A stretch of 64,000 nt of DNA from Escherichia phage vB_EcoP_PhAPEC5: sequence record NC_024786.1; one strand, written 5' to 3'. The first letter of the stretch is position 1, and the number at the start of each line of letters is the position of its first letter. A program made the translations under genes and the position numbers. Below the pieces are notes generated by a model. It did not search any database. It was not told where the DNA came from and saw only the letters and a program-made list of their open reading frames with translations. Of the stretch, positions 1 to 28,956 are shown piece by piece.

Positions 1-30
1 TTAGTTATCTATCACGGTGTTCGTGACCTG

Positions 31-702
31 TTGTATAAACGCTCTGCTAAAAACCCTGCTGAAGAAGGATTCTGGCCTAACAACATCGTGGATATGCAGT
101 CAGTCACCATTGACATGAAAGCTACTCCACGACTGACTGTTGCTACCAAACTGCCTCGTGTAGTCTCCACCATCGAAGGTGAAGATATTAACTGGCATAT
201 TGATGTAGCAGGTGGTAAAGCACCATTTACTTATAAGTGGCAATTCAAAGCTGATACTGCTGGTGCAGTATTCGCTGATATTGACTCTGGTAGTAATGCA
301 TCCGCTGCTACTGCAACATTAACCCTTAACAACGTAACAGCTGCTTCTGCTGGTACTTATAAAGTGATTGTTACTGATGCTAATGGAACCACGGTAGAAG
401 ATACCTCACTGCTGGCTGTAGGTTACTACGAAGCAAGCTCACTGGTAGCTACTCCTGCTTCACTGGCTCTGTCTGTTGCTACTGATACTGCTGCTGGTAA
501 GACTGTAACCATTGTTGCTATGCCTGTTGGTTCATCTGCTGGTACTTTGTCTATCAAGACTGCTCCAGATTCTGCCCGTGCTACAGCTACCATTGCTGGT
601 AGCGTACTGACAGTTAAACCTGTGGCTGCTGGTGAAGCTACTTCTGTAGTAGTTACCAACGGTACTGTAGATGTAACCATCGCTATTACTGTTGCAGAGT
701 AA
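31..702 (+). CDS. Ig-like repeat protein, probable capsid decoration protein (N4 gp17-like); true N-terminus may lie upstream of the window
   Basis: Long Thr/Ala/Val-rich ORF with beta-sandwich-like repeats (e.g. TVKPVAAGEATSVVVTNGTVDVTIAITV); frame begins near the window edge; followed by a rho-independent terminator. Confidence 0.45.
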   Translation: MYKRSAKNPAEEGFWPNNIVDMQSVTIDMKATPRLTVATKLPRVVSTIEGEDINWHIDVAGGKAPFTYKWQFKADTAGAVFADIDSGSNASAATATLTLNNVTAASAGTYKVIVTDANGTTVEDTSLLAVGYYEASSLVATPASLALSVATDTAAGKTVTIVAMPVGSSAGTLSIKTAPDSARATATIAGSVLTVKPVAAGEATSVVVTNGTVDVTIAITVAE

Positions 703-752
703 GAGTATTCCTTATTTGGGGTTATAAACCCTGAAAGGAAACCCTCAAGTTT

Positions 753-782
753 GACCTCCCTATTGAAGGGAGGTCTTTTTTT
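753..782 (+). terminator. Rho-independent terminator
   Basis: Stem GACCTCCC / GGGAGGTC with loop TATTGAA followed by a T7 run. Confidence 0.75.
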
Positions 783-807
783 GACTTAAACAAACTGGAG
801 CCAGGAA

Positions 808-996
808 ATGTATAAAGAGATTGCAGTATTCTCGTTCATATTAGGTGGGTTCTTTGGTGCAGGATTTGTAGGTATTTCTAATACCTACTTTGGTTCTACT
901 CCAAATACTGTAACGCAAACCCTCAAGCATGAATGTGAATTGAATATCCCTCGTAATCAAAACTGCGTAATGCAGTTCGTACCGGAGAAGAAATGA
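808..996 (+). CDS. small hydrophobic protein (hypothetical)
   Basis: ATG start with GGAG RBS upstream; Gly/Phe-rich hydrophobic N-terminus. Confidence 0.3.
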   Translation: MYKEIAVFSFILGGFFGAGFVGISNTYFGSTPNTVTQTLKHECELNIPRNQNCVMQFVPEKK

Positions 997-1178
997 AACT
1001 TACCCAGTCCCAAGCAATCTTCCTTCGCATGGTTCATGGTGGTTCTGCCACCAGCAACCGTAATAACAAAACCGCACAGTCTCTTAAGAAGCTGGGCTTA
1101 GTACAGTTCAATACTGGTCTTGGGTGGTCATTAACCCCTACCGGAGTACTTCAACTCAACGAATTAAAAGGTAACTAA
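993..1178 (+). CDS. hypothetical protein
   Basis: ATG overlapping upstream stop (ATGA); basic 61-aa ORF. Confidence 0.3.
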   Translation: MKLTQSQAIFLRMVHGGSATSNRNNKTAQSLKKLGLVQFNTGLGWSLTPTGVLQLNELKGN

Positions 1179-1505
1179 ATGAAAACTTTAATTGCTGTTG
1201 CTGTAGTAGCTTTATCAGTTATGTCATTCGGTGCTCAAGCATCTAGTCGTGCAACCTTGCTGGAAGCTGCTGCTGATTACAAAGCTAATAATACAAACTT
1301 TGTGAACCAGGGTTACTTCATGGGCATGGTTACCATGGGGGTGGAAGCAGGAAAGAACTGTGTACCTGACGATATGAAGTTGGGGCACATTTTTGACAGA
1401 GTGGCTTCTATTATTCTGTATGACCGAAAGGTTAATGCAATGAAAGTACCGTCAGACATGGTTCTGTTAGCGATTGATACAGCGTATCCCTGCGTTAAAT
1501 CTTAA
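1179..1505 (+). CDS. secreted/periplasmic protein with N-terminal signal peptide (hypothetical)
   Basis: N-terminus MKTLIAVAVVALSVMSFGAQASS resembles a Sec signal peptide with AxA cleavage site; two Cys in the mature part. Confidence 0.45.
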   Translation: MKTLIAVAVVALSVMSFGAQASSRATLLEAAADYKANNTNFVNQGYFMGMVTMGVEAGKNCVPDDMKLGHIFDRVASIILYDRKVNAMKVPSDMVLLAIDTAYPCVKS

Positions 1506-1539
1506 TTAGTAATTCCATTAACTTTAGGAGAGTAAGTAA

Positions 1540-2592
1540 ATGGCGAGCATTGACTCCTTGACTGTATGTAATACACGCCAAGCCCGTAATTTTATTATCC
1601 GTGCCCTGCAAGCAGGTAACGTACCGTTCCTGACTTCATCACCAGGCATGGGTAAATCTGCAATTATCCGTTCTGTTGCAGAAGAATTTGGCATGAAGCT
1701 GATTGACCATCGTCTGTCTACTTCTGCCCCGGAAGACCTGTCTGGTCTACCATTCCGTAATGGTGACCGTGCAGAATTTATCCCATTCGCTGACTTATTC
1801 CCTATCGAGGGAGATGAAGTACCGGAAGGTTATAATGGCTGGCTCCTGTTCCTTGATGAGTTCAACTCAGCTAAGAAAGAAGTAGTAGCTGCAGCATACA
1901 AACTGATTTTAGACCGCATGACTGGACAGAAGAAACTTCACCCTAATGTGATGATTATCTGTGCCGGTAACAAAGCTACTGACCGTGCCATCGTTAACCC
2001 ACTGGGTACTGCAATGCAGTCCCGTGTTGTCCACTTCGAAATGGAACTTAACTTCGACATCTTTGTTGAAGACGTGATGATTCCACAAGAATGGGATGAG
2101 CGTCTGGTTGCATTCTTACATGCTAACCCTGGCTATCTGCACGACTTCGATCCTGCCCATAAGAACAAAACGTTCTGTTGTCCTCGTACCTGGGACTTTG
2201 TTAACAAAGACCTCAAGAACCAACCAGAAGGTGCTCTGCCTGATGAAGATTCCCTATACTACAGTGGTTTTGTTACACCAGGTAAGGCCGTAGAGTTTGT
2301 TCAGTTCACTCAGGTATACAATCGTATGATTACGATTGAGAAGGTAGTCAAAGACCCTTTAGGCTGTGCACTACCGGAAGATAATAACCTGTGTTGGGCT
2401 ACCGTTAACCATCTGGCTAACAAGACCACTGAAGATAACTTCGCTGATGTTCTTCAGTACATTGAACGCTTTAAAACGTTCACCCATAAGATTCTGTACT
2501 TCCGTACAGTAGGCAAAGCATTACCAGAAATTCAGGCTACCCCCGAATGGCGTAAGGCTGCTGCCAATATCTCTCGTTACATTCACGGGTAA
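1540..2592 (+). CDS. MoxR-like AAA+ ATPase
   Basis: Walker A SSPGMGKSAI, Walker B LLFLDEFNSA, sensor/arginine region; strong AGGAG RBS; immediately followed by a VWA-domain partner. Confidence 0.8.
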   Translation: MASIDSLTVCNTRQARNFIIRALQAGNVPFLTSSPGMGKSAIIRSVAEEFGMKLIDHRLSTSAPEDLSGLPFRNGDRAEFIPFADLFPIEGDEVPEGYNGWLLFLDEFNSAKKEVVAAAYKLILDRMTGQKKLHPNVMIICAGNKATDRAIVNPLGTAMQSRVVHFEMELNFDIFVEDVMIPQEWDERLVAFLHANPGYLHDFDPAHKNKTFCCPRTWDFVNKDLKNQPEGALPDEDSLYYSGFVTPGKAVEFVQFTQVYNRMITIEKVVKDPLGCALPEDNNLCWATVNHLANKTTEDNFADVLQYIERFKTFTHKILYFRTVGKALPEIQATPEWRKAAANISRYIHG

Positions 2593-2599
2593 TCACATC

Positions 2600-3775
2600 A
2601 TGAACCAGATACCTCAGCACACACTTAGCGATGAACAACTCATGCGTGAGTATGACCGTATACAAGCGCAGGCATTTTTAGGCCGCAGTGCAGCGTTTTT
2701 TGGTTCATTGCTGTGTAGTCTTAAGTTCTCATGGAAACGTGAAGACTGTCCCACTGCATGTACTGACGGGATAGAACTCCATTTCAACCCAGACTTCTTT
2801 ATCTGGATGTGCCCTGATGCGAGAGAAACAGTGCTAATGCACGAACTCTGGCATGTGGCATATCTACATGGCATCCGCTGTGGAAGCCGTGACCCGGAAA
2901 TCTGGAACCAGGCATGTGACCACTTCATTAACCTTCAGTTAGAAGAAGACGGTTACAAGTTCACTGGTATCGACAAAGGCATTTGCAAAGACCCTCAATA
3001 TAAAGGATGGGTTGAAGAAGACATCTACGATGACCTGATGAAGAACCCTCAGAAAAGGCAGAAGCCGTCAGGGGGTGCTGGAGCAGGTCTTGCTGGCGAC
3101 ATGAAAGCTCCCTCTTCGGGGCAGTCCCAGGGTGCTGTTGTCAACAACGTAGTACGTGCAATGCAAAGCCAGAAGATGGCTGGTGGAATAATGCCAGGTA
3201 AAGGTGCTGGTCGTATGGAAGAGGTTATTACCCAATTCCTTAAACCAGTGGTTCCATGGCAGGAAGTCCTTATGGACTTCTTCACTGACATTGATGACTC
3301 ACGCTATACGTGGGCCAGACCTAACCGTCGTTTCACTGACATCTATCTACCGTCATTGGAAGATGATGAAGGACGTTTACGACACCTAGCTTACTTTGAG
3401 GATGTATCTGGTTCTATTAGTAGTTCTGACTCTCTGCGTTTTAACTCAGAGGTTGCCTACGTTAAAAGCCAGTTCAATCCTAAGAAGATGACCCTTATTA
3501 CCTTCGACGATATTATCCAAGAAGAAATAGACATCACTGAAGAAGATACCTTTGAAGAGATTAAGATTACTGGTCGTGGTGGTACAAACCTTGAACCAGT
3601 GCGTGAATGGATTATTGAGAATAAGCCAACCGCTGCAATCATATTCTCCGATATGTATGTTCGTCCTATGGAAGAGTTACCATTTGATATCCCTATCATC
3701 TGGTGTGTTCTGAATAATCCTAATGCTACCGTACCTTTTGGGGAGGTAGTTCATATCCCTAAAGGAATGAAATGA
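2600..3775 (+). CDS. VWA-domain protein with N-terminal HExxH metallopeptidase-like domain (partner of the MoxR ATPase)
   Basis: HELWH motif in N-terminal half; MIDAS-type DxSGS motif (FEDVSGSISSSD) in C-terminal half; gene order matches MoxR-VWA pairs. Confidence 0.55.
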   Translation: MNQIPQHTLSDEQLMREYDRIQAQAFLGRSAAFFGSLLCSLKFSWKREDCPTACTDGIELHFNPDFFIWMCPDARETVLMHELWHVAYLHGIRCGSRDPEIWNQACDHFINLQLEEDGYKFTGIDKGICKDPQYKGWVEEDIYDDLMKNPQKRQKPSGGAGAGLAGDMKAPSSGQSQGAVVNNVVRAMQSQKMAGGIMPGKGAGRMEEVITQFLKPVVPWQEVLMDFFTDIDDSRYTWARPNRRFTDIYLPSLEDDEGRLRHLAYFEDVSGSISSSDSLRFNSEVAYVKSQFNPKKMTLITFDDIIQEEIDITEEDTFEEIKITGRGGTNLEPVREWIIENKPTAAIIFSDMYVRPMEELPFDIPIIWCVLNNPNATVPFGEVVHIPKGMK

Positions 3776-4224
3776 TTATTAACCGCAGTCGTTTATTAGA
3801 GCTGGCTCCTATAAAGAACATGGTGGACTCTAAGCAAACCAGTAATGGTTTCTCTTGGGGTCTTACAGAATGCGGATACGATATTCGTATTAAGCAGGAT
3901 GTGACCATGTTCTTGGGGCGACGATTCGTACTAGCGTCAGCCATAGAAGAGTTCGACGTCCCACCAAACCTTATGGGCCGTGTACTTAATAAGAGTACAT
4001 GGGCCAGAAAGGGGATTGATGCAAGCATGACAACCAATATCGAACCGGGGTGGAAAGGTTTCCTTACCCTTGAGCTTCGTTATTCGGGTATTTTGCCTGT
4101 TAAAATAAAAGCTGGTACTGGCATAGCTCAGGTTATCTTCGAAGAGATAGCAGAGCATTGTCGTTATGAAGGTAAGTACCAGTGTCAACCAAACAAACCA
4201 GTAGCTGCTAGACCTTCAAAATAA
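3772..4224 (+). CDS. dCTP deaminase/dUTPase-fold protein (putative)
   Basis: ATGA overlap with upstream gene; motif GFSWGLTECGYDIRI resembles the dUTPase/dCTP-deaminase Gly-rich/DLR region. Confidence 0.45.
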   Translation: MIINRSRLLELAPIKNMVDSKQTSNGFSWGLTECGYDIRIKQDVTMFLGRRFVLASAIEEFDVPPNLMGRVLNKSTWARKGIDASMTTNIEPGWKGFLTLELRYSGILPVKIKAGTGIAQVIFEEIAEHCRYEGKYQCQPNKPVAARPSK

Positions 4225-4254
4225 AAGGCTATCCAGCTTAACCAAGGAAATAAC

Positions 4255-4458
4255 ATGTCAGTATTCACTACTAAAGCAAATGGTCAGAAAGTAACTGTTA
4301 TAGCTGCAAACGTAGCATTCGTAACAGATAATGGTGGTCAAGCATGTATCACTTTTAACAATGGTGATGTACTTCAAACTGAAGTAGGTTACGACTCTGT
4401 TCGTAAGAACGTAGCTAAGGCACTGTCTGGGGCTAAGCCTAAGGCAGAAGCCGAGTAA
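4255..4458 (+). CDS. hypothetical protein
   Basis: ATG with AAGGA RBS; 67-aa ORF. Confidence 0.35.
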   Translation: MSVFTTKANGQKVTVIAANVAFVTDNGGQACITFNNGDVLQTEVGYDSVRKNVAKALSGAKPKAEAE

Positions 4459-4531
4459 GTAGCTGCCTAAATAGCCCAGCATAGTTGGGCTATTTGTGAA
4501 GAAACTAACTCAACCCCACATAGGAACCATC

Positions 4532-4792
4532 ATGGAATCTTTAGCAGCAATCCTCATTCTGTTATTTGCACTAGCTGTATACCTTATCCCTACTATTATT
4601 GCTTTTGCACGAGGCCATGCCTCTAAGTGGGGCATTGGTGTACTCAATATCGTATTAGGCTGGTCTTTAGTCTTCTGGGTAGTAGCACTGATTTGGGCAC
4701 TGTCTAACAAAGGGCAGTCTCAGACTACAATCGTTAACGTTGGTAGTGGGAACCAGTACAACGTGTCTCAAACGAGTCAGTCTGATAAGTAA
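4532..4792 (+). CDS. Imm-like superinfection immunity membrane protein (putative)
   Basis: Two TM segments with motif PTIIAFARGHASKWGIGVLNIVLGWSLVFWVVALIWAL, resembling the T4 Imm family; tracked ORF starts at GTG 4496, ATG 4532 with AGGA RBS preferred. Confidence 0.5.
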   Translation: MESLAAILILLFALAVYLIPTIIAFARGHASKWGIGVLNIVLGWSLVFWVVALIWALSNKGQSQTTIVNVGSGNQYNVSQTSQSDK

Positions 4793-4867
4793 CTAACCTA
4801 AGCATCATTGCATAGTGGTGCTTGTGGAAGTTACTTCCAGCTCATTGCTTATCCATCTCCTAATCCA

Positions 4868-4895
4868 AGCCCACCTAACCCGTGGGCTTTTTTAA
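4868..4895 (+). terminator. Rho-independent terminator
   Basis: Stem AGCCCAC / GTGGGCT, loop CTAACCC, followed by TTTTTTAATT; lies inside the tracked ORF 4808-5296, arguing for the downstream ATG 4910 as true start. Confidence 0.65.
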
Positions 4896-4909
4896 TTACA
4901 GGTACTCTT

Positions 4910-5296
4910 ATGTCAAACAGACAAAATGGTAAGTCTATCTTATATGGACTGGACTTAAGTAAACTGGAACAAACTGCAATGCTTACTTTAGGTAAAACTA
5001 TACATGACCAAGTAGAAGAGAATGGAATTGGTCCTGATGTTTATGCAGCAATGCAAGCTGCTATTCAGAAAGGATGGACTAGTAGATCATTTAATGTTTT
5101 CCCATACATCCCTCCTGAGCCTCATCTGAAATCTAAGGTAGACAGAATTATAGATAAGTTCTGGCTTAGCCCGTGTTATAACGACATGCATCTTTACCTG
5201 GCTCAAATACAAAAGAATACCCGTACTGAGGATGTGTTTAAAGGTAAGAGCACTACCCATCATTACCCTTGGTATAGAAGAGGTAGTAAATACTAA
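4910..5296 (+). CDS. hypothetical protein
   Basis: ATG downstream of terminator; tracked ORF begins with TTG at 4808. Confidence 0.4.
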   Translation: MSNRQNGKSILYGLDLSKLEQTAMLTLGKTIHDQVEENGIGPDVYAAMQAAIQKGWTSRSFNVFPYIPPEPHLKSKVDRIIDKFWLSPCYNDMHLYLAQIQKNTRTEDVFKGKSTTHHYPWYRRGSKY

Positions 5297-5739
5297 TGCG
5301 TATCCCATTTCTAAGAAAAAGAGAACGAAATCCTGTTCTTTATAATAAAGGCATAGAGGATGAGTATGAACTCAACCGTAAAGCCCGTTCCTACGCAACA
5401 AAATTGTTTATGGGGACTAATACCCCTGATAGATTACTGGACTTTGTTTTCGAACAAGTCTTTATCATATACAGCTTAGCTATGTCTGCTGGTTCACAAG
5501 AAGTAAGTGATAAGGCAAGAGATGCTCTCTGTATGCTCCGTAGGGAGTATGAAGCCCTCATGTATGTAGACTTATACTCCTTTAAAAAAGAAACCGCTGT
5601 AGCGTGTTCTGTGGCTCTTACTGAAGGTATAGCAGTATTACAGGAACTACCTCGTAGTGAGTTTAAACTGGTATATGTTCAGGCCAAGAGGATTACAGAA
5701 AGCCGTAGTGGTATTACCAACTATCTAAGGTCATTCTAA
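5296..5739 (+). CDS. hypothetical protein
   Basis: ATG start; 147-aa ORF, 1-nt overlap with next gene. Confidence 0.4.
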   Translation: MRIPFLRKRERNPVLYNKGIEDEYELNRKARSYATKLFMGTNTPDRLLDFVFEQVFIIYSLAMSAGSQEVSDKARDALCMLRREYEALMYVDLYSFKKETAVACSVALTEGIAVLQELPRSEFKLVYVQAKRITESRSGITNYLRSF

Positions 5740-6683
5740 TGATTAAGGCAACTGTCATTGCAGATTCCGTTCATCATGCAACTGGTACTCGTATTACCAC
5801 CTTTGAATTGGTTTACCCCCGATTCATTCATAGTGAGTTTATGACCCACCGTGTATTCAACCGCAATGCCTCAAGTAGTCGTGCTATCCCTACCTCTAAG
5901 TTCATTGAACAGGTTCGTAATGAACCAGTGATGCCAAGTCACTGGGGCAAGAACCAGAAAGGTATGCAAGCAGATGAAGAACTCACTCCTATGGAGATTG
6001 AGGATGCTAAGTTTATCTGGGATAACGCTGCATCTTCTGCTGCTGTATATGCTGAACAACTACGTCGTGGACAAGTACATAAGCAGATTGTTAACCGTAT
6101 TCTGGAACCATTCACGCATATCCGTGTGGTGGTAACTTCAACTAGCTGGGCTAACTTCTATGGCTTACGTGACCATGAAGACGCCCAACCAGAGATTCGT
6201 GAACTGGCTCAAGCAATGCGTAAGGCTCATAATGAAAGTGTTCCAACAAAACTCATGCAAGGGCATTGGCATATGCCGTATATCACTGATAATGATCTTT
6301 ATGTTGCTTACGATTTCTGCAAACATCAGCGAATTACTCGTGATGAACCAAGTAGTGAAGAAGTGTATGGCTTACTTCTTAAAGTAAGTGCTGCTCGCTG
6401 TGCTCGTGCTTCTTACAACAATTTCGAAGGTCGTCCTTCTACTATTGAAGAAGACTTAGGATTGTTTGCTAAGTTAGTTGAGAACCAACCTATTCATGCA
6501 TCCCCTACTGAACACCAGGCAACTCCTATGCTGTTCGGTGATAAGTTCATTAACAACCAAAACCCATTAACCTGGGAACAGGGTGTTACTTCAATGGATC
6601 GTGAAGGTAAGCTGTATTCAGGCAACTTACTGGATTTCATCCAATTCCGTAAACTAATCCCTGGTGAAACCATTACAGAATAA
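5739..6683 (+). CDS. ThyX-like flavin-dependent thymidylate synthase (putative)
   Basis: Motif SEFMTHRVFNRNASSSRAIP resembles the ThyX RHRx7S signature (first Arg replaced by Thr). Confidence 0.4.
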   Translation: MIKATVIADSVHHATGTRITTFELVYPRFIHSEFMTHRVFNRNASSSRAIPTSKFIEQVRNEPVMPSHWGKNQKGMQADEELTPMEIEDAKFIWDNAASSAAVYAEQLRRGQVHKQIVNRILEPFTHIRVVVTSTSWANFYGLRDHEDAQPEIRELAQAMRKAHNESVPTKLMQGHWHMPYITDNDLYVAYDFCKHQRITRDEPSSEEVYGLLLKVSAARCARASYNNFEGRPSTIEEDLGLFAKLVENQPIHASPTEHQATPMLFGDKFINNQNPLTWEQGVTSMDREGKLYSGNLLDFIQFRKLIPGETITE

Positions 6684-6823
6684 GGTAATTAAATGTCTCA
6701 AGAAGATGCACTGTTTATTATCCGTAATTTCCTAGATGCAAATTGGGAACAGTTTTCTGAGTTCTGTGAAGAACTAGGAGAATCTGCTGAGGAAACTTAT
6801 GAAGCAACTAGTGGGTAATCAAA

Positions 6824-7060
6824 ATGAAACGTTTAGCTATCCAAGCAATGATTATAAGTATCATCCTGGTTCTGGAGTTTGTATTTGCACTACATGGTGC
6901 ACAGAGCCTGGAAGAGATGTTCTTCGTAGTGGCCCGTTACTCTGCTTGTTCTATTGGCTTATGGTGTGTGTATTACTATACACGCGATTATGTAGCCATT
7001 AAGGAACATGATGATGCTAAGGAACGTCTACGACAATTCGTAGAAGAGAATCGTAAGTAA
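6824..7060 (+). CDS. small membrane protein (hypothetical)
   Basis: ATG start; hydrophobic N-terminal segment IISIILVLEFVFAL then charged tail; ends just before a terminator. Confidence 0.35.
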   Translation: MKRLAIQAMIISIILVLEFVFALHGAQSLEEMFFVVARYSACSIGLWCVYYYTRDYVAIKEHDDAKERLRQFVEENRK

Positions 7061-7065
7061 ACCTA

Positions 7066-7092
7066 AGACCTCCTCCGGGAGGTCTTTTTTTG
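7066..7092 (+). terminator. Rho-independent terminator
   Basis: Stem GACCTCC / GGAGGTC followed by TTTTTTTGA; near-identical stem and tail to the terminator at 753-782. Confidence 0.75.
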
Positions 7093-7119
7093 ATTATATT
7101 AACTCTTTTAGGAGGGCAT

Positions 7120-7347
7120 ATGCCTGCTAAATACCGTATCAAAGACACACCAGTACTCGGTGGGGCTGCCGATGAATATACTAAACAGGGAGACATTGTT
7201 TATCAATGCACTAAACATGATTACGGCTGTGCCAGTGATGATACTCGTGCAACAGGTTTTATGCATATATCCGTAACACTTGACCCTACTGGCGATTACC
7301 CATTCTTTACTATCCCTGTCCATAACCTGGAGCAAATCCATGATTAA
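7120..7347 (+). CDS. hypothetical protein
   Basis: ATG 7120 preceded by AGGAGG RBS (7110-7115); tracked ORF starts at TTG 7090. Confidence 0.4.
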   Translation: MPAKYRIKDTPVLGGAADEYTKQGDIVYQCTKHDYGCASDDTRATGFMHISVTLDPTGDYPFFTIPVHNLEQIHD

Positions 7348-7666
7348 CCCTGAAGTTATTCATAGTAAAACTGGTAAGGCTGTTCCACTTAGCGATATTG
7401 CAGTTACCGGTGATATTGCTGCTTGTCCAGCTAACATCGCTTCCCTGTGTATGTGCATTGCTGCACTAGCAGAGGAACGTAAATTATGGCTGGAACCAAG
7501 CAAAGAGATGATTCAGGCTGGTTTGGCAGAAGTACAAAGAACCGTAGACCAGTGGCATGAAGAGTCATTCGCTGGCTTATGTATGCCAGAAGATTTAACT
7601 GATGATATGGCATCAGATATGGCTGTATTCGTCCTTCAAGCAATGGCAGGTAAACGCAATGGCTAA
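7340..7666 (+). CDS. hypothetical protein
   Basis: ATG 7340 overlapping upstream stop; Cys-containing 108-aa ORF. Confidence 0.35.
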   Translation: MINPEVIHSKTGKAVPLSDIAVTGDIAACPANIASLCMCIAALAEERKLWLEPSKEMIQAGLAEVQRTVDQWHEESFAGLCMPEDLTDDMASDMAVFVLQAMAGKRNG

Positions 7667-7850
7667 TGTAAACATCGCCTCAGAGAAAACGTATAGCATT
7701 CAGATTAATGGCTTAACCGAATATCAGGTCTTATTCCTAATGAATGCTTTTCAAAACAGTCCAGTGGGTCACCATCCTAATGATGAACCACGGGAAGAAG
7801 CTGAACTTCGTAAAGCTATTTTTGATAAGTGTAAACAAGTACTACTTTAA
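7659..7850 (+). CDS. hypothetical protein
   Basis: ATG 7659 overlapping upstream stop codon; 63 aa. Confidence 0.3.
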   Translation: MANVNIASEKTYSIQINGLTEYQVLFLMNAFQNSPVGHHPNDEPREEAELRKAIFDKCKQVLL

Positions 7851-27164: not shown

Positions 27165-27258
27165 GATGGGGTTCAATTCCCCCCAGTGGAGTAATCCACT
27201 AGCGTGCTTGGTGCACGAATAAGACTTAGTACTGGTGGTTCGATTCCATCCCCCGTTA
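27165..27258 (+). ncRNA. tRNA-like T-arm elements and hairpins
   Basis: TGGGG-TTCAATT-CCCCC hairpin, AGTGGA-GTAA-TCCACT hairpin, then T-arm GGTGG-TTCGATT-CCATC with acceptor-like CCCCGTT-A; no canonical cloverleaf found. Confidence 0.25.
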
Positions 27259-27452
27259 CCTGAAGTCGCCAGGTACTTATGGCAAACGGGTAGTAACGAA
27301 CTAGTCATTCGTCAAACGCCCACCCAATTATGAGTCAGCAAGAACGCCTTCACTTAAACTTAAACAAAAAAGCTTAACGCAATAATTATGTAGGGGTATG
27401 TAAGGATTGCGAAGAAGGAGCCAGTTAGAGCCTGGCATGACTCGCCCATTAT

Positions 27453-27526
27453 GTCCGCTTAGCTTAGACTGGGAAAGCAACCGACTAATAATCGGAAGGT
27501 CACTGGTTCAAATCCAGTAGTGGACA
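27453..27526 (+). tRNA. tRNA candidate (74 nt; anticodon loop CTAATAA, apparent anticodon AAT)
   Basis: Manual cloverleaf: acceptor GTCCGCT/AGTGGAC (7 bp, one G-T), U8, D-stem GCTT/AAGC with GG in D-loop, 4-bp anticodon stem CCGA/TCGG, 5-nt variable loop, T-arm ACTGG-TTCAAAT-CCAGT, discriminator A. Confidence 0.45.
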
Positions 27527-27756
27527 CCCATTCAGCAGTAACATAGTCCTGATTGCATAGCACTCTAAAGACAACACTGGTAAGACAGTCCAGTGGCTGC
27601 TAATGTATTGTTATTCCCCTCGACGGGAATTTCGCTAGTGAAGGTAACACTTAAAAATCCAAACCCACGTCTTACTACTATCGGGCTATCAACCCACGGT
27701 CGCTTAACCCTATAGTGGTAGTAGTTTGACGGCCTGCCTCGTTGACTGCGTTAAAG

Positions 27757-27797
27757 TCACTAAGTCCCTCAGAGCCGTCACTCTGGGGGACTTTTTT
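27757..27797 (+). terminator. Rho-independent terminator closing the structured region
   Basis: Stem TCCCTCAGAG / CTCTGGGGGA followed by TTTTTTATTT. Confidence 0.6.
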
Positions 27798-27825: not shown

Positions 27826-27985
27826 TATGATTGATCTAATCTTAACCCCGTATGCCTATGAGGTAACGGATAACCGAGGATGTAAGTCTTTGGTATTTGC
27901 AGGTAGCGTAGCCTATAACAACGCAGTCATGTTTAAATACAAACTTAAACCACTCTATGAGGCTAATAATGGCAACAGTAAGTAA
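27826..27985 (+). CDS. small hypothetical protein
   Basis: ATG 27826 (tracked ORF starts at TTG 27800); 52 aa. Confidence 0.3.
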
Positions 27986-28349
27986 AGAATCAATCGAAGC
28001 TAAGATTAAGAGCGTCTACTATTTCAACGGTGCTGATGCAGTAAAGTCTGCCTTCGTTAACCCTTCTGCACTTCCGGCAGACGATTTGGCTAACCTGGGC
28101 CTGGTAACATACTGTATTATCATCCTGGAAAATGGCTTCAAAGTTGAAGGTGTATCTGCCTGTGTTGACCCAACCATCTATGATGAACAAAAAGGCCGTC
28201 AGTATGCATATGAAAATGCATTCGATAAGATTTGGGAAATGGAGGGTTACCTCCTACGTCAGGCATTACATGAGAAAGAGGAGACTGCTAAGGCTCTGGC
28301 TTCCTTTGCAGAAAACAACACCTGTGATGGTGGTGGTTGCACCATTTAA
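27969..28349 (+). CDS. hypothetical protein (possibly N4 gp49-family)
   Basis: ATG 27969 with GAGG RBS; sits two genes upstream of the virion RNAP as the N4 gp49-family gene does; weak similarity to the N-terminal half of the next ORF. Confidence 0.35.
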   Translation: MATVSKESIEAKIKSVYYFNGADAVKSAFVNPSALPADDLANLGLVTYCIIILENGFKVEGVSACVDPTIYDEQKGRQYAYENAFDKIWEMEGYLLRQALHEKEETAKALASFAENNTCDGGGCTI

Positions 28350-28467: not shown

Positions 28468-28956
28468 ATGTCAGAAGAAATTAAAGTTCACTTCACCAAC
28501 TACATTGGAACCAAGTGTGTAAATGGATTCCGGATGAACAAGGAAACATATTGCAAACTTCGTGGCTGGGATGTGCCTGCTAATGAAGACCCATTAGAAG
28601 TAGGTTACTTAGTAGAATACCCGGATTCTAAACCTAACCATGAGCAATTCCGTGGTTATATTAGCTGGTCACCAAGGGCTGCATTTGAAGCTGCATATTG
28701 TGATGTAGATAAGGGTTGTACTTTTGGTCACGCCGTAGAGCTTCTCAAAGCAGGCTTCAAACTAGCCCGTAAAGGTTGGAACGGTAAGGGAATGTATATC
28801 ACCTTAGTAACCGGTGAAAATTGGGCTATAGATAAACATGAGAATACTGTTTGTGAGAAACGGGATTGGCTGGGTATTAAGACCGTTGATAACCAATTTA
28901 TGCCATGGGTTCCATCCCAATCGGATGTATTAGCTGAAGACTGGGTATTAGTCTAG
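28468..28956 (+). CDS. DUF2829/Tad2-like domain protein (candidate anti-Thoeris sponge) fused to an N-terminal domain of unknown function
   Basis: C-terminal half carries KGWNGKGMYITLV ... PWVPSQSDVLAEDWVLV, matching the remembered DUF2829 pattern; ATG 28468 with GAGG RBS; tracked ORF starts at GTG 28441. Confidence 0.45.
   Translation: MSEEIKVHFTNYIGTKCVNGFRMNKETYCKLRGWDVPANEDPLEVGYLVEYPDSKPNHEQFRGYISWSPRAAFEAAYCDVDKGCTFGHAVELLKAGFKLARKGWNGKGMYITLVTGENWAIDKHENTVCEKRDWLGIKTVDNQFMPWVPSQSDVLAEDWVLV

Follow-up and report, generated by a model that had tools for sequence, protein, structure and literature searches.

Why should a coliphage maintain a tRNA gene whose anticodon begins with A, and is such a gene a decaying remnant, a substrate for wobble modification, or a working adaptor as it stands? 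We address this question for a 74-nt element at positions 27,453-27,526 (plus strand) of Escherichia phage vB_EcoP_PhAPEC5, within the 64,000-nt stretch of record NC_024786.1 that was analysed (hereafter, the window). The sequence-only reading of this DNA had proposed a standard cloverleaf with the anticodon AAU, an anticodon with A34 being atypical in bacteria, and had suggested that the tRNA is either decayed or dependent on modification. That A34 is atypical is borne out by the literature: in reviews, AAU counts as 'lost' in prokaryotes and phages lack the same 'prohibited' anticodons (PMC8007984; bioRxiv 10.64898/2026.05.15.725136), and tRNAs with ANN anticodons, apart from Arg-ACG, are nearly absent, phages included (bioRxiv 10.64898/2026.05.15.725136). 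We find that the element is a canonical tRNA with an anticodon that is the same in every copy of this type that we gathered, and the interpretation that we prefer, to which we give about an even chance, is that of a functional, AUU-specific isoleucine tRNA, probably with an unmodified A34, that serves as an accessory elongator.

The element is a canonical elongator tRNA

A comparison of the whole window with 4227 Rfam families matched the tRNA model RF00005 to positions 27,453-27,526 end to end (model 1-71 of 71), with 62.4 bits against a gathering score of 29 (E = 3.9e-11), and ARAGORN, which is independent of Rfam, called tRNA-Ile(aat). The coordinates, length and sequence assigned to the tRNA in the sequence-only reading are therefore upheld, as is the AAU anticodon within the loop CTAATAA, which is evident both from the sequence and from the ARAGORN call. 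That reading had asked for ARAGORN scoring, and had named a low covariance score or a different anticodon register as outcomes that would overturn it; the score was not low, and no other register is needed for a 7-nt loop with U33 and A37.

The stems of 7, 4, 5 and 5 bp and the 7-nt anticodon loop are those of a canonical elongator tRNA (RF00005; the parts are listed in Table 1). The acceptor stem is formed by the pairs G1-C72, U2-A71, C3-G70, C4-G69, G5·U68, C6-G67 and U7-A66, the D stem (GCUU/AAGC) encloses the loop AGACUGGGA (A14 G15 A16 C17 U17a G18 G19 G20 A21), and the anticodon stem consists of an A27·A43 mismatch followed by C28-G42, C29-G41, G30-C40 and A31-U39. The mismatch, which had been noted from the sequence alone, is real and is present in 17 of 17 distinct homologues. 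All tertiary nucleotides are there (U8, A14, G18G19, G15:C48, U33, A37, G46, G53-C61, T54T55C56 and A58), and they are invariant across the homologue alignment. CCA is not encoded, the trailers in the different copies being CCC, CTT, CAT or TCC. The wider span that ARAGORN reported (27,452-27,530, with an 8-bp acceptor stem including U-1:A73 and a 'CCCA' tail) was rejected as a tool artefact, because neither U-1:A73 nor the tail is kept in relatives. Minimum free energy folding of the single sequence produced no cloverleaf (z = -1.9), which is uninformative for an AU-rich unmodified tRNA, and we therefore relied on the covariance model and on comparative data. The further claim that this is the sole standard tRNA holds in that nothing else in the window was called a tRNA by ARAGORN or Rfam, although non-canonical tRNA-like modules lie just upstream.

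The anticodon is constant and stem pairing is kept among homologues

Copies of the gene were gathered by BLAST in the phage collection and by a pattern search of viral contigs in which the anticodon could take any sequence; further metagenome and viral copies were obtained with patterns that specified the T arm and the 3' acceptor strand alone, so that the anticodon arm was unconstrained. We identified 24 AAT-type copies, which comprise 17 distinct sequences. None of them differs in the anticodon loop, not even where the search pattern had left the anticodon arm open. Variation is found in 14 columns of the alignment, of which 9 are stem columns, where pairing is kept in all sequences but one (the sole broken pair is A1·C72 in copy L153). 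Pairs that changed on both sides are 2:71 (U-A, C-G, U·G), 29:41 (C-G to U-A, in L155 and L156) and 30:40 (G-C to A-U, in ZQ2). Overall, 95% of the alignment cells are paired, vs. 17-46% after sliding the 3' partners. The Rfam scores of the copies in relatives are between 63 and 66 bits, and the tRNA is kept in phages with rearranged flanks.

Because every copy carries AAT, the double changes in the anticodon stem postdate the fixation of AAU, and changes of this kind appear hard to square with a dead gene. Comparison of the homologous sequences thus indicates that the anticodon is fixed and that the structure of the tRNA is under selection. The suggestion of a decayed tRNA is not supported, given the Rfam score, the intact tertiary nucleotides and the stem changes across 17 distinct sequences, all but one of which keep pairing. 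An initial measure of conservation, which portrayed the gene as an 'island of conservation' (94.8% vs. 34-70% in the flanks), was dropped after the comparison was redone on collinear relatives, because the presence or absence of whole neighbouring modules had inflated the figure.

Isoleucine identity and probable ancestry

Of the 12 bacterial isoleucine determinants listed in PMC9976931 (Table 1), 8 are present in the phage tRNA (A73, C4-G69, U12-A23, C29-G41, A35, U36, A37 and A38), with variants in some copies (U29-A41 in L155 and L156, and G73 in L145 and L152). The key determinants of methionyl-tRNA synthetase (MetRS), C34 and U4-A69, are absent.

The best matches beyond the genus, in searches of the phage and E. 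coli collections, were tRNA-Ile2 genes of the CAU type, with 80% identity to an Aeromonas phage copy and 73% to ileZ of an Stx prophage; identity to E. coli ileX is 75%, given an ileX sequence that we take to be correct. The corresponding values are 61% for E. coli tRNA-Ile1(GAU), 67% for elongator tRNA-Met and 59-71% for GAU-type genes overall. The 21-nt anticodon arm of a CAT tRNA on an IMG/VR contig (L003) is identical to that of the phage gene save for position 34. These similarities make descent from a CAU gene the best-supported hypothesis for the origin of the tRNA, not a demonstrated one, and the ancestor would most probably have been a phage-borne, lysidine-type tRNA-Ile2 (ileX/ileZ-like) that changed at position 34. 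The other conceivable route, a G-to-A transition in a phage tRNA-Ile(GAU), would start from genes that are less similar.

The resemblance to lysidine-type tRNA-Ile2 (E. coli ileX/ileY and Stx-phage ileZ) is the highest overall (73-80% sequence similarity) and extends to C4-G69, U12-A23, C29-G41, A73 and a weak 27:43 pair, and both kinds of tRNA are carried in phage tRNA islands. The phage tRNA differs in having A34 rather than C34 and in its unusual D arm, namely the GCUU/AAGC stem and the loop sequence given above. With the anticodon AAU, it does not belong to the tRNA-Ile2 class as such, in which CAU with C34 is the substrate of TilS, but it has its closest sequence relative there nonetheless. 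Because position 34 is A, the phage tRNA can be neither a TilS substrate nor mischarged by MetRS through C34, and it should read AUU rather than AUA.

The wobble base and decoding

In E. coli, AUU is read only via the G34·U wobble of tRNA-Ile1(GAU), and modification of A37 to t6A by host enzymes is expected. Among the isoleucine codons of 49 long open reading frames (ORFs; ~18,700 codons), ATT accounts for 61%, ATC for 29% and ATA for 9%. At 33.7 per thousand, ATT, the codon that the AAU anticodon matches, is the fourth most used codon, and it makes up 66% of the isoleucine codons in the late-strand genes; ATA (5.0 per thousand) is not enriched.

When an orthogonal tRNA(AAU) with a loop otherwise equal to that of tRNA-Arg2 was placed in E. 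coli, it carried no inosine, which was found in E. coli only with the anticodons ACG, AUG and AAG (PMC11066159). The reading by this orthogonal tRNA was 4.5% for AUU, 0.43% for AUC, 0.27% for AUG, and below detection for AUA (PMC11066159 Table 1). A TadA substrate loop has C35 and G36, or at least G36 (TadA specificity is taken here from the summary and data given in PMC11066159), and the phage tRNA has A35 and U36 instead. Among the 413 six-frame ORFs of at least 50 amino acids in the window, no TadA-like deaminase was found, either by the motif [HC]AE...PCxxC or by phmmer with a TadA query sequence, and no deaminase is annotated in positions 1-7700 of Escherichia phage PhAPEC7, the 7.7 kb that have no counterpart in the window. 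By analogy with the orthogonal tRNA (PMC11066159), inosine in the phage tRNA is unlikely. The modification dependence (A-to-I) that the sequence-only reading had offered beside decay is accordingly the less likely option, given this analogue and the lack of a deaminase-like ORF in the window. When a G34A derivative of the native E. coli tRNA-Ile was supplied on a high-copy plasmid, both growth rate and final optical density rose in at least two media (bioRxiv 10.64898/2026.05.15.725136).

Under our preferred interpretation, the tRNA would be the final unit in the polycistronic transcript of an RNA island located where a rightward, N4 middle-gene-like cluster ends. It would be matured by host RNase P, by 3' trimming and by the CCA-adding enzyme, which is needed because CCA is not encoded, and would then probably be charged with isoleucine by the host isoleucyl-tRNA synthetase (IleRS). 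A34 would most likely stay unmodified, such that AUU would be read by the Watson-Crick pair A34:U3, AUC weakly and AUA not at all. The phage would thereby gain a perfect-match decoder of its main isoleucine codon that depends on no position-34 enzyme (TilS or TadA).

Engineered AAU tRNAs (the orthogonal Methanocaldococcus jannaschii tRNA of PMC11066159, and the G34A tRNA-Ile of bioRxiv 10.64898/2026.05.15.725136) have the same anticodon, the same CU-AAU-AA loop and the same host, but are laboratory constructs, whereas the phage tRNA is a natural, selected gene on another scaffold. The eukaryotic cytosolic tRNA-Ile (AAU converted to IAU) shares the genomic anticodon and the split Ile/Met box, but it is deaminated quantitatively by the heterodimeric ADAT2/3, which bacteria lack, and the sequence of the phage tRNA is unrelated to it. 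ANN exceptions in four-fold boxes are likewise rare escapes from the avoidance of ANN, some of them unmodified; however, four-fold boxes tolerate broad reading, whereas AAU stands in the 3+1 Ile/Met box, where reading of AUG amounts to missense. A natural tRNA-Ile(AAU) in easily grown coliphages is a test case for why ANN anticodons are 'forbidden', and it opens to study, in a natural system, whether A34 is unmodified, whether AUU alone is read, whether AUG is misread, whether IleRS accepts the tRNA, and what its effect on fitness is.

Observations at odds with a functional isoleucine tRNA

Several observations weigh against this interpretation. Within the set of closest collinear relatives, conservation of the tRNA does not exceed that of its surroundings (10.8% variable columns vs. 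6-14% in the flanks), and the invariance of the T arm in the alignment is an ascertainment artefact of the search pattern. ATT is presumably only ~1.1-fold more frequent than in E. coli, if the host values that we assume are right, so that classical codon compensation is weak; given this small enrichment, the benefit may be kinetic (Watson-Crick pairing instead of wobble) or may lie elsewhere. The isoleucine determinant at position 34 (G or lysidine) is replaced by A34 in every copy, and the D loop AGACUGGGA lacks the determinants G16, U(D)20 and U(D)21; with four determinants missing, IleRS may charge or edit the tRNA inefficiently. Descent from a CAU gene is not proven, because the acceptor and T-arm scaffold is shared, at 78%, with a jumbo-phage tRNA-Arg(UCU). 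In addition, a preprint describes the conversion of the native Phe-tRNA(AAA) to I34 in E. coli and suggests that TadA is flexible, from which it would follow that TadA promiscuity depends on the tRNA body.

The gene is, furthermore, not present in all relatives. Phage EC1-UPM was reported without any tRNA (PMC3853248), and St11Ph5 and PGN829.1 are cleanly devoid of the tRNA, one flank following directly on the other. Bas96-type phages (L139 3700-3784, which is Bas96, as well as L149 and L151) carry a second allele at the tRNA-Ile site, in which the acceptor stem and T arm are unchanged and the D arm is canonical, and the anticodon arm has been swapped for a conserved ~30-nt motif, CAGGAAAGCUUCGAGAGAACAAGGUGUCUG, that also occurs in the RNA island of a lambdoid prophage (L158 4305-4334). 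This allele scores 54.4 bits with the Rfam tRNA model, receives no ARAGORN call and is labelled 'tRNA-Val' in GenBank. Because the gene is cleanly missing in some relatives and another allele takes its place in Bas96-type phages, the comparison of genomes indicates that tRNA-Ile(AAU) is an accessory cassette, dispensable and exchangeable in the manner of phage 'moron'-type or counter-defence genes.

Alternative explanations

Some of these observations could be accommodated by a recently inactivated pseudogene, i.e., an AUA- or AUY-reading tRNA that was disabled at position 34 and is drifting to loss: several relatives have lost the gene or carry a replacement, and in the closest of them it shows no more conservation than the flanks; it also lacks several IleRS determinants and has degenerate tRNA-like sequences as neighbours. 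Nevertheless, we consider this quite improbable, as all 24 copies carry AAT and have since acquired pair-preserving and double compensatory changes in the stems and none in the loop, the copies in relatives have the Rfam score of a healthy tRNA (63-66 bits), and loss takes the form of a clean cassette rather than erosion. The invariant canonical 7-nt loop (U33, A37-A38), the compensated anticodon stem and the full tertiary set, all of which are requirements of decoding, also leave very little credence for a structured RNA that acts not as an adaptor but as processing punctuation, as a decoy for tRNA-binding proteins or as a primer, even though the island contains conserved tRNA-like modules that are unable to be normal adaptors, and the Bas96-type allele retains the acceptor and T arms with no anticodon arm. 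A further alternative is that host TadA or an unknown enzyme makes I34; a single tRNA-Ile(IAU) of the eukaryotic kind would then read AUU, AUC and AUA, and the rare lysidine tRNA for AUA would be bypassed. The loop C32 U33 A34 N N A37 A38 is that of tRNA-Arg2 save positions 35 and 36, the preprint on I34 in native E. coli Phe-tRNA(AAA) points to TadA flexibility, and an Ile2-like ancestry would suit a continuing need to read AUA. However, positions 35 and 36 are both unlike those of ACG, an AAU anticodon in a TadA-optimal loop stays unmodified in E. coli, where only ANG anticodons are modified (PMC11066159), AUA is not enriched in the phage (9% of isoleucine codons; 5.0 per thousand), and the window contains no CDA-fold motif or TadA-like ORF, with none annotated in the remaining 7.7 kb of PhAPEC7; this makes the inosine tRNA improbable in our view.

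The weakness of codon compensation as a sole explanation also speaks for a different kind of benefit, in which the phage tRNA would decode as we propose but would be kept as a nuclease-proof spare part that replaces host tRNA-Ile(GAU) depleted by an anticodon nuclease of the host or a prophage or by phage-induced host shut-off; owing to A34 and its unusual D and anticodon arms, it would be poorly cleaved by nucleases. We regard this as unlikely, albeit with a real chance of being correct. tRNA-Ile(GAT) is a secondary target of HepS, an anticodon nuclease of enterobacterial prophages (PMC13043305), the evasion of tRNA-targeting defences by phage tRNAs through differences in the anticodon loop is an established idea (PMC10264068), the patchy distribution of the cassette is usual for counter-defence genes, and a Tad2-like ORF (PF11195, 86.7 bits) lies ~940 nt downstream. 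On the other hand, restriction of N4-like phages through tRNA-Ile is not known for any nuclease, the trigger of HepS consists of siphovirus tail-tip proteins (PMC13043305), and the proximity of Tad2 is circumstantial. Anti-defence tRNAs of other phages (T5 against retron and PARIS systems, and mycobacteriophage) are similarly accessory, have a loop unlike that of the host isoacceptor and stand beside an anti-defence gene; no cognate nuclease is known for the Gamaleyavirus group. A broader proposal, which we consider speculative and rather doubtful, is that A34 is the purpose of this tRNA and not a defect, providing an isoleucine adaptor that is untouched by TilS and TadA, that may evade nucleases that recognise the wobble base, and that would decode AUU by strict Watson-Crick pairing of an unmodified adenosine. 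It would then be one part of a mobile phage 'translation island' whose other conserved parts (the CCA-ended tRNA-like RNAs and the tmRNA-like tag module described below, the latter present in hundreds of enterobacterial phages) likewise act on host translation and ribosome rescue. On this proposal, no earlier case would be known in the E. coli world of natural selection keeping a tRNA with an unmodified A34 in a split codon box.

Genome context, distribution and annotation

The 7 kb surrounding the tRNA are 97.4% identical to PhAPEC7 and 90-95% identical to Bp4, ECBP1, IME11 and other Gamaleyavirus members (N4-like, Schitoviridae). The tRNA stands at the end of a rightward gene cluster, after SSB, a RuvC-like resolvase and a gp47-like ORF, and precedes the gp48/gp49 homologues, with the giant virion RNA polymerase gene on the opposite strand. 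Downstream of the tRNA are an ORF with a Phage_gp49_66 domain at 27,957-28,349 (+) and the Tad2-like (Thoeris anti-defence 2) ORF at 28,468-28,956 (+), by virtue of whose domain the tRNA island adjoins a probable counter-defence gene.

The short direct repeat CCCATT is found on both sides of the tRNA gene, and further boundaries between RNA modules (26,921-26,928, 27,047-27,054, 27,323-27,333 and 26,320-26,333) carry the junction motif (A)CCA-ATTA(T)/CCCATT as well. The copies that flank the tRNA match the end-points of the deletions in St11Ph5 and PGN829.1, which suggests that RNA modules, of which the tRNA is one discrete cassette, are gained and lost via recombination at the junction repeats.

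Copies with at least 92% identity occur in ~38 phage records. The gene is already annotated in relatives as 'tRNA-Ile-AAT', and in Bp4 the note 'tRNA-lle(aat)', typed with a lower-case L, turned into 'tRNA-Xle' at NCBI, an artefact that is found in the RefSeq/GenBank records NC_024790.1, NC_024142.2 and OP312987.1; in several close relatives, the gene is unannotated or is covered by spurious small ORFs. Database labels in the island are generally unreliable ('tRNA-Xle', 'tRNA-Val', 'tRNA-Cys', 'tRNA-OTHER', or none), and phages of the Gamaleyavirus type are under development for therapy. We found no discussion in the literature of the AAU anticodon in the Gamaleyavirus tRNA gene. The existence of the gene is already in the databases, and what is new is its recognition as a maintained ANN tRNA, together with its probable ancestry and decoding.

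Table 1. Positions of the tRNA, its parts and the surrounding RNA features in the window
Feature	Position	Strand	Description
tRNA-Ile(AAU)	27453..27526	+	74 nt; Rfam RF00005, ARAGORN, covariation in 17 distinct homologues
Acceptor stem	27453-59/27519-25	+	part of tRNA-Ile(AAU)
D arm	27462-78	+	part of tRNA-Ile(AAU)
Anticodon arm	27480-96	+	part of tRNA-Ile(AAU)
Anticodon loop CTAATAA (C32 U33 A34 A35 U36 A37 A38)	27485-27491	+	from the sequence
Anticodon AAT (A34 A35 U36)	27487..27489	+	from the sequence; invariant in 24/24 AAT-type copies
Variable loop	27497-501	+	AGGUC; part of tRNA-Ile(AAU)
T arm	27502-18	+	ACUGG-UUCAAAU-CCAGU; part of tRNA-Ile(AAU)
Discriminator A73	27526	+	part of tRNA-Ile(AAU)
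5' leader ending in CCCATTAT	27443..27452	+	CCCATT repeated at 27527-27532; junction repeat bounds the tRNA cassette
Intrinsic terminator, 13-bp stem then TTTTTTATTT	27762..27793	+	~236 nt 3' of the tRNA; closes the RNA island; annotated terminator in PhAPEC7
tmRNA-like module	26401..26690	+	tag frame 26468-26500, pseudoknot-like stems, long closing helix GGAAAGAGCA/UGCUCUUUCC
tRNA-like module A	26859..26924	+	62 nt + CCA; 7-bp acceptor, central hairpin, T arm, encoded ACCA
tRNA-like module B	26927..27050	+	120 nt + CCA; 7-bp acceptor, T arm, encoded ACCA
Two more T-arm elements	27146..27260	+	T arms 27167-27183 and 27234-27250; fold z = -2.45; weak Rfam tRNA-Sec match

Other AAU tRNAs in bacterial assemblies

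A pattern scan of 185,579 genomes for CCGACTAATAATCGG gave mostly chance matches among the matches listed, where 3 of 120 loci contain real tRNA-Ile(aat) genes that are unrelated to the phage gene. One is in a Pasteurellaceae isolate (L058 4226-4302, minus strand; 52.8 bits, CCA encoded), one in a Pyrinomonadaceae metagenome-assembled genome (MAG; L114 1429-1502, plus strand), where it belongs to an array of 14 tRNAs with Ile(gat) among them, and one in a Bacillota MAG (L134 4791-4867, plus strand). As these are three unrelated genes in bacterial assemblies, AAU isoleucine tRNAs recur sporadically elsewhere, and the phage gene is a natural, selected ANN exception in a split codon box, not a unique one.

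The RNA island upstream of the tRNA

The ~2 kb upstream of the tRNA form an island of structured RNA that is ended by the terminator and that includes five T-arm-bearing modules. The most distal of the modules in Table 1 resembles transfer-messenger RNA (tmRNA). Its 10-codon tag frame, ANEEAYLMVA*, follows ...AUAAAU and has the hallmarks of a tmRNA tag, namely an Ala resume codon at the start, a stop codon in a hairpin loop and flanking pseudoknot-like stems; 6 of 25 predicted pairs covary. Six phage groups retain the tag frame AN[DE]x..L..A*, and the changes in it are synonymous or conservative (other versions are ANDDVVLMAA*, ANEEMYLAVA*, ANDNTFLAVA* and ANDNVFLAVA*). Its carriers are Gamaleyaviruses, a lambdoid prophage, Kuttervirus, Klebsiella siphophages and Felixounavirus, where it is located inside a tRNA cluster, and homologues were located at L158 3990-4340, L159 ~890-1150, L160 ~840-1060 and L161 ~900-1200. 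We identified 678 matching phage records, nearly all of them unannotated; the lambdoid-prophage copy occupies the gap between the Q antiterminator and holin in ~115 E. coli genomes. Two Rfam tmRNA families align to the module below threshold, with partial matches of 17-33 bits, and ARAGORN called no tmRNA in the window or in the homologues examined. A tRNA-like domain of the tmRNA type (G3·U70, ACCA, ends flanking the tag) was looked for in the tag module and was not found. Derivation of module B and the tag from E. coli ssrA was considered and rejected, as BLAST of 5,426 E. coli genomes missed ssrA and matched the unannotated lambdoid-prophage element. A paper describing the tag module was not found in the literature.

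Modules A and B have perfect 7-bp acceptor stems and are both conserved in relatives. The central hairpin of module A has been rebuilt by covariation in relatives, and module B shows compensation both at the 3:70 pair and within the T stem. The first of the two T-arm elements that follow resembles what we take to be the 3' end of E. coli tmRNA (GGGGUUCAAUUCCCCCCAG...). The tag module, for its part, shows tRNA-Ile(AAU) to be a component of a mobile, modular 'translation island' common to unrelated enterobacterial phages.

Additional weak tRNA-like calls were obtained in relatives (L008 1356-1427 and 1719-1797, L007 2419-2491, and L013 ~2430-2500), with the labels 'Ala(cgc)', 'Cys(aca)' and 'tRNA-OTHER', the latter with a 6-nt loop. 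'Cys(aca)' would be a second A34 anticodon, in a call that falls short of Rfam E <= 0.01. In phage Moonfish, the 5' half of 'Ala(cgc)' is joined to the 3' half of module A in a chimera, implying that recombination took place at T loops.

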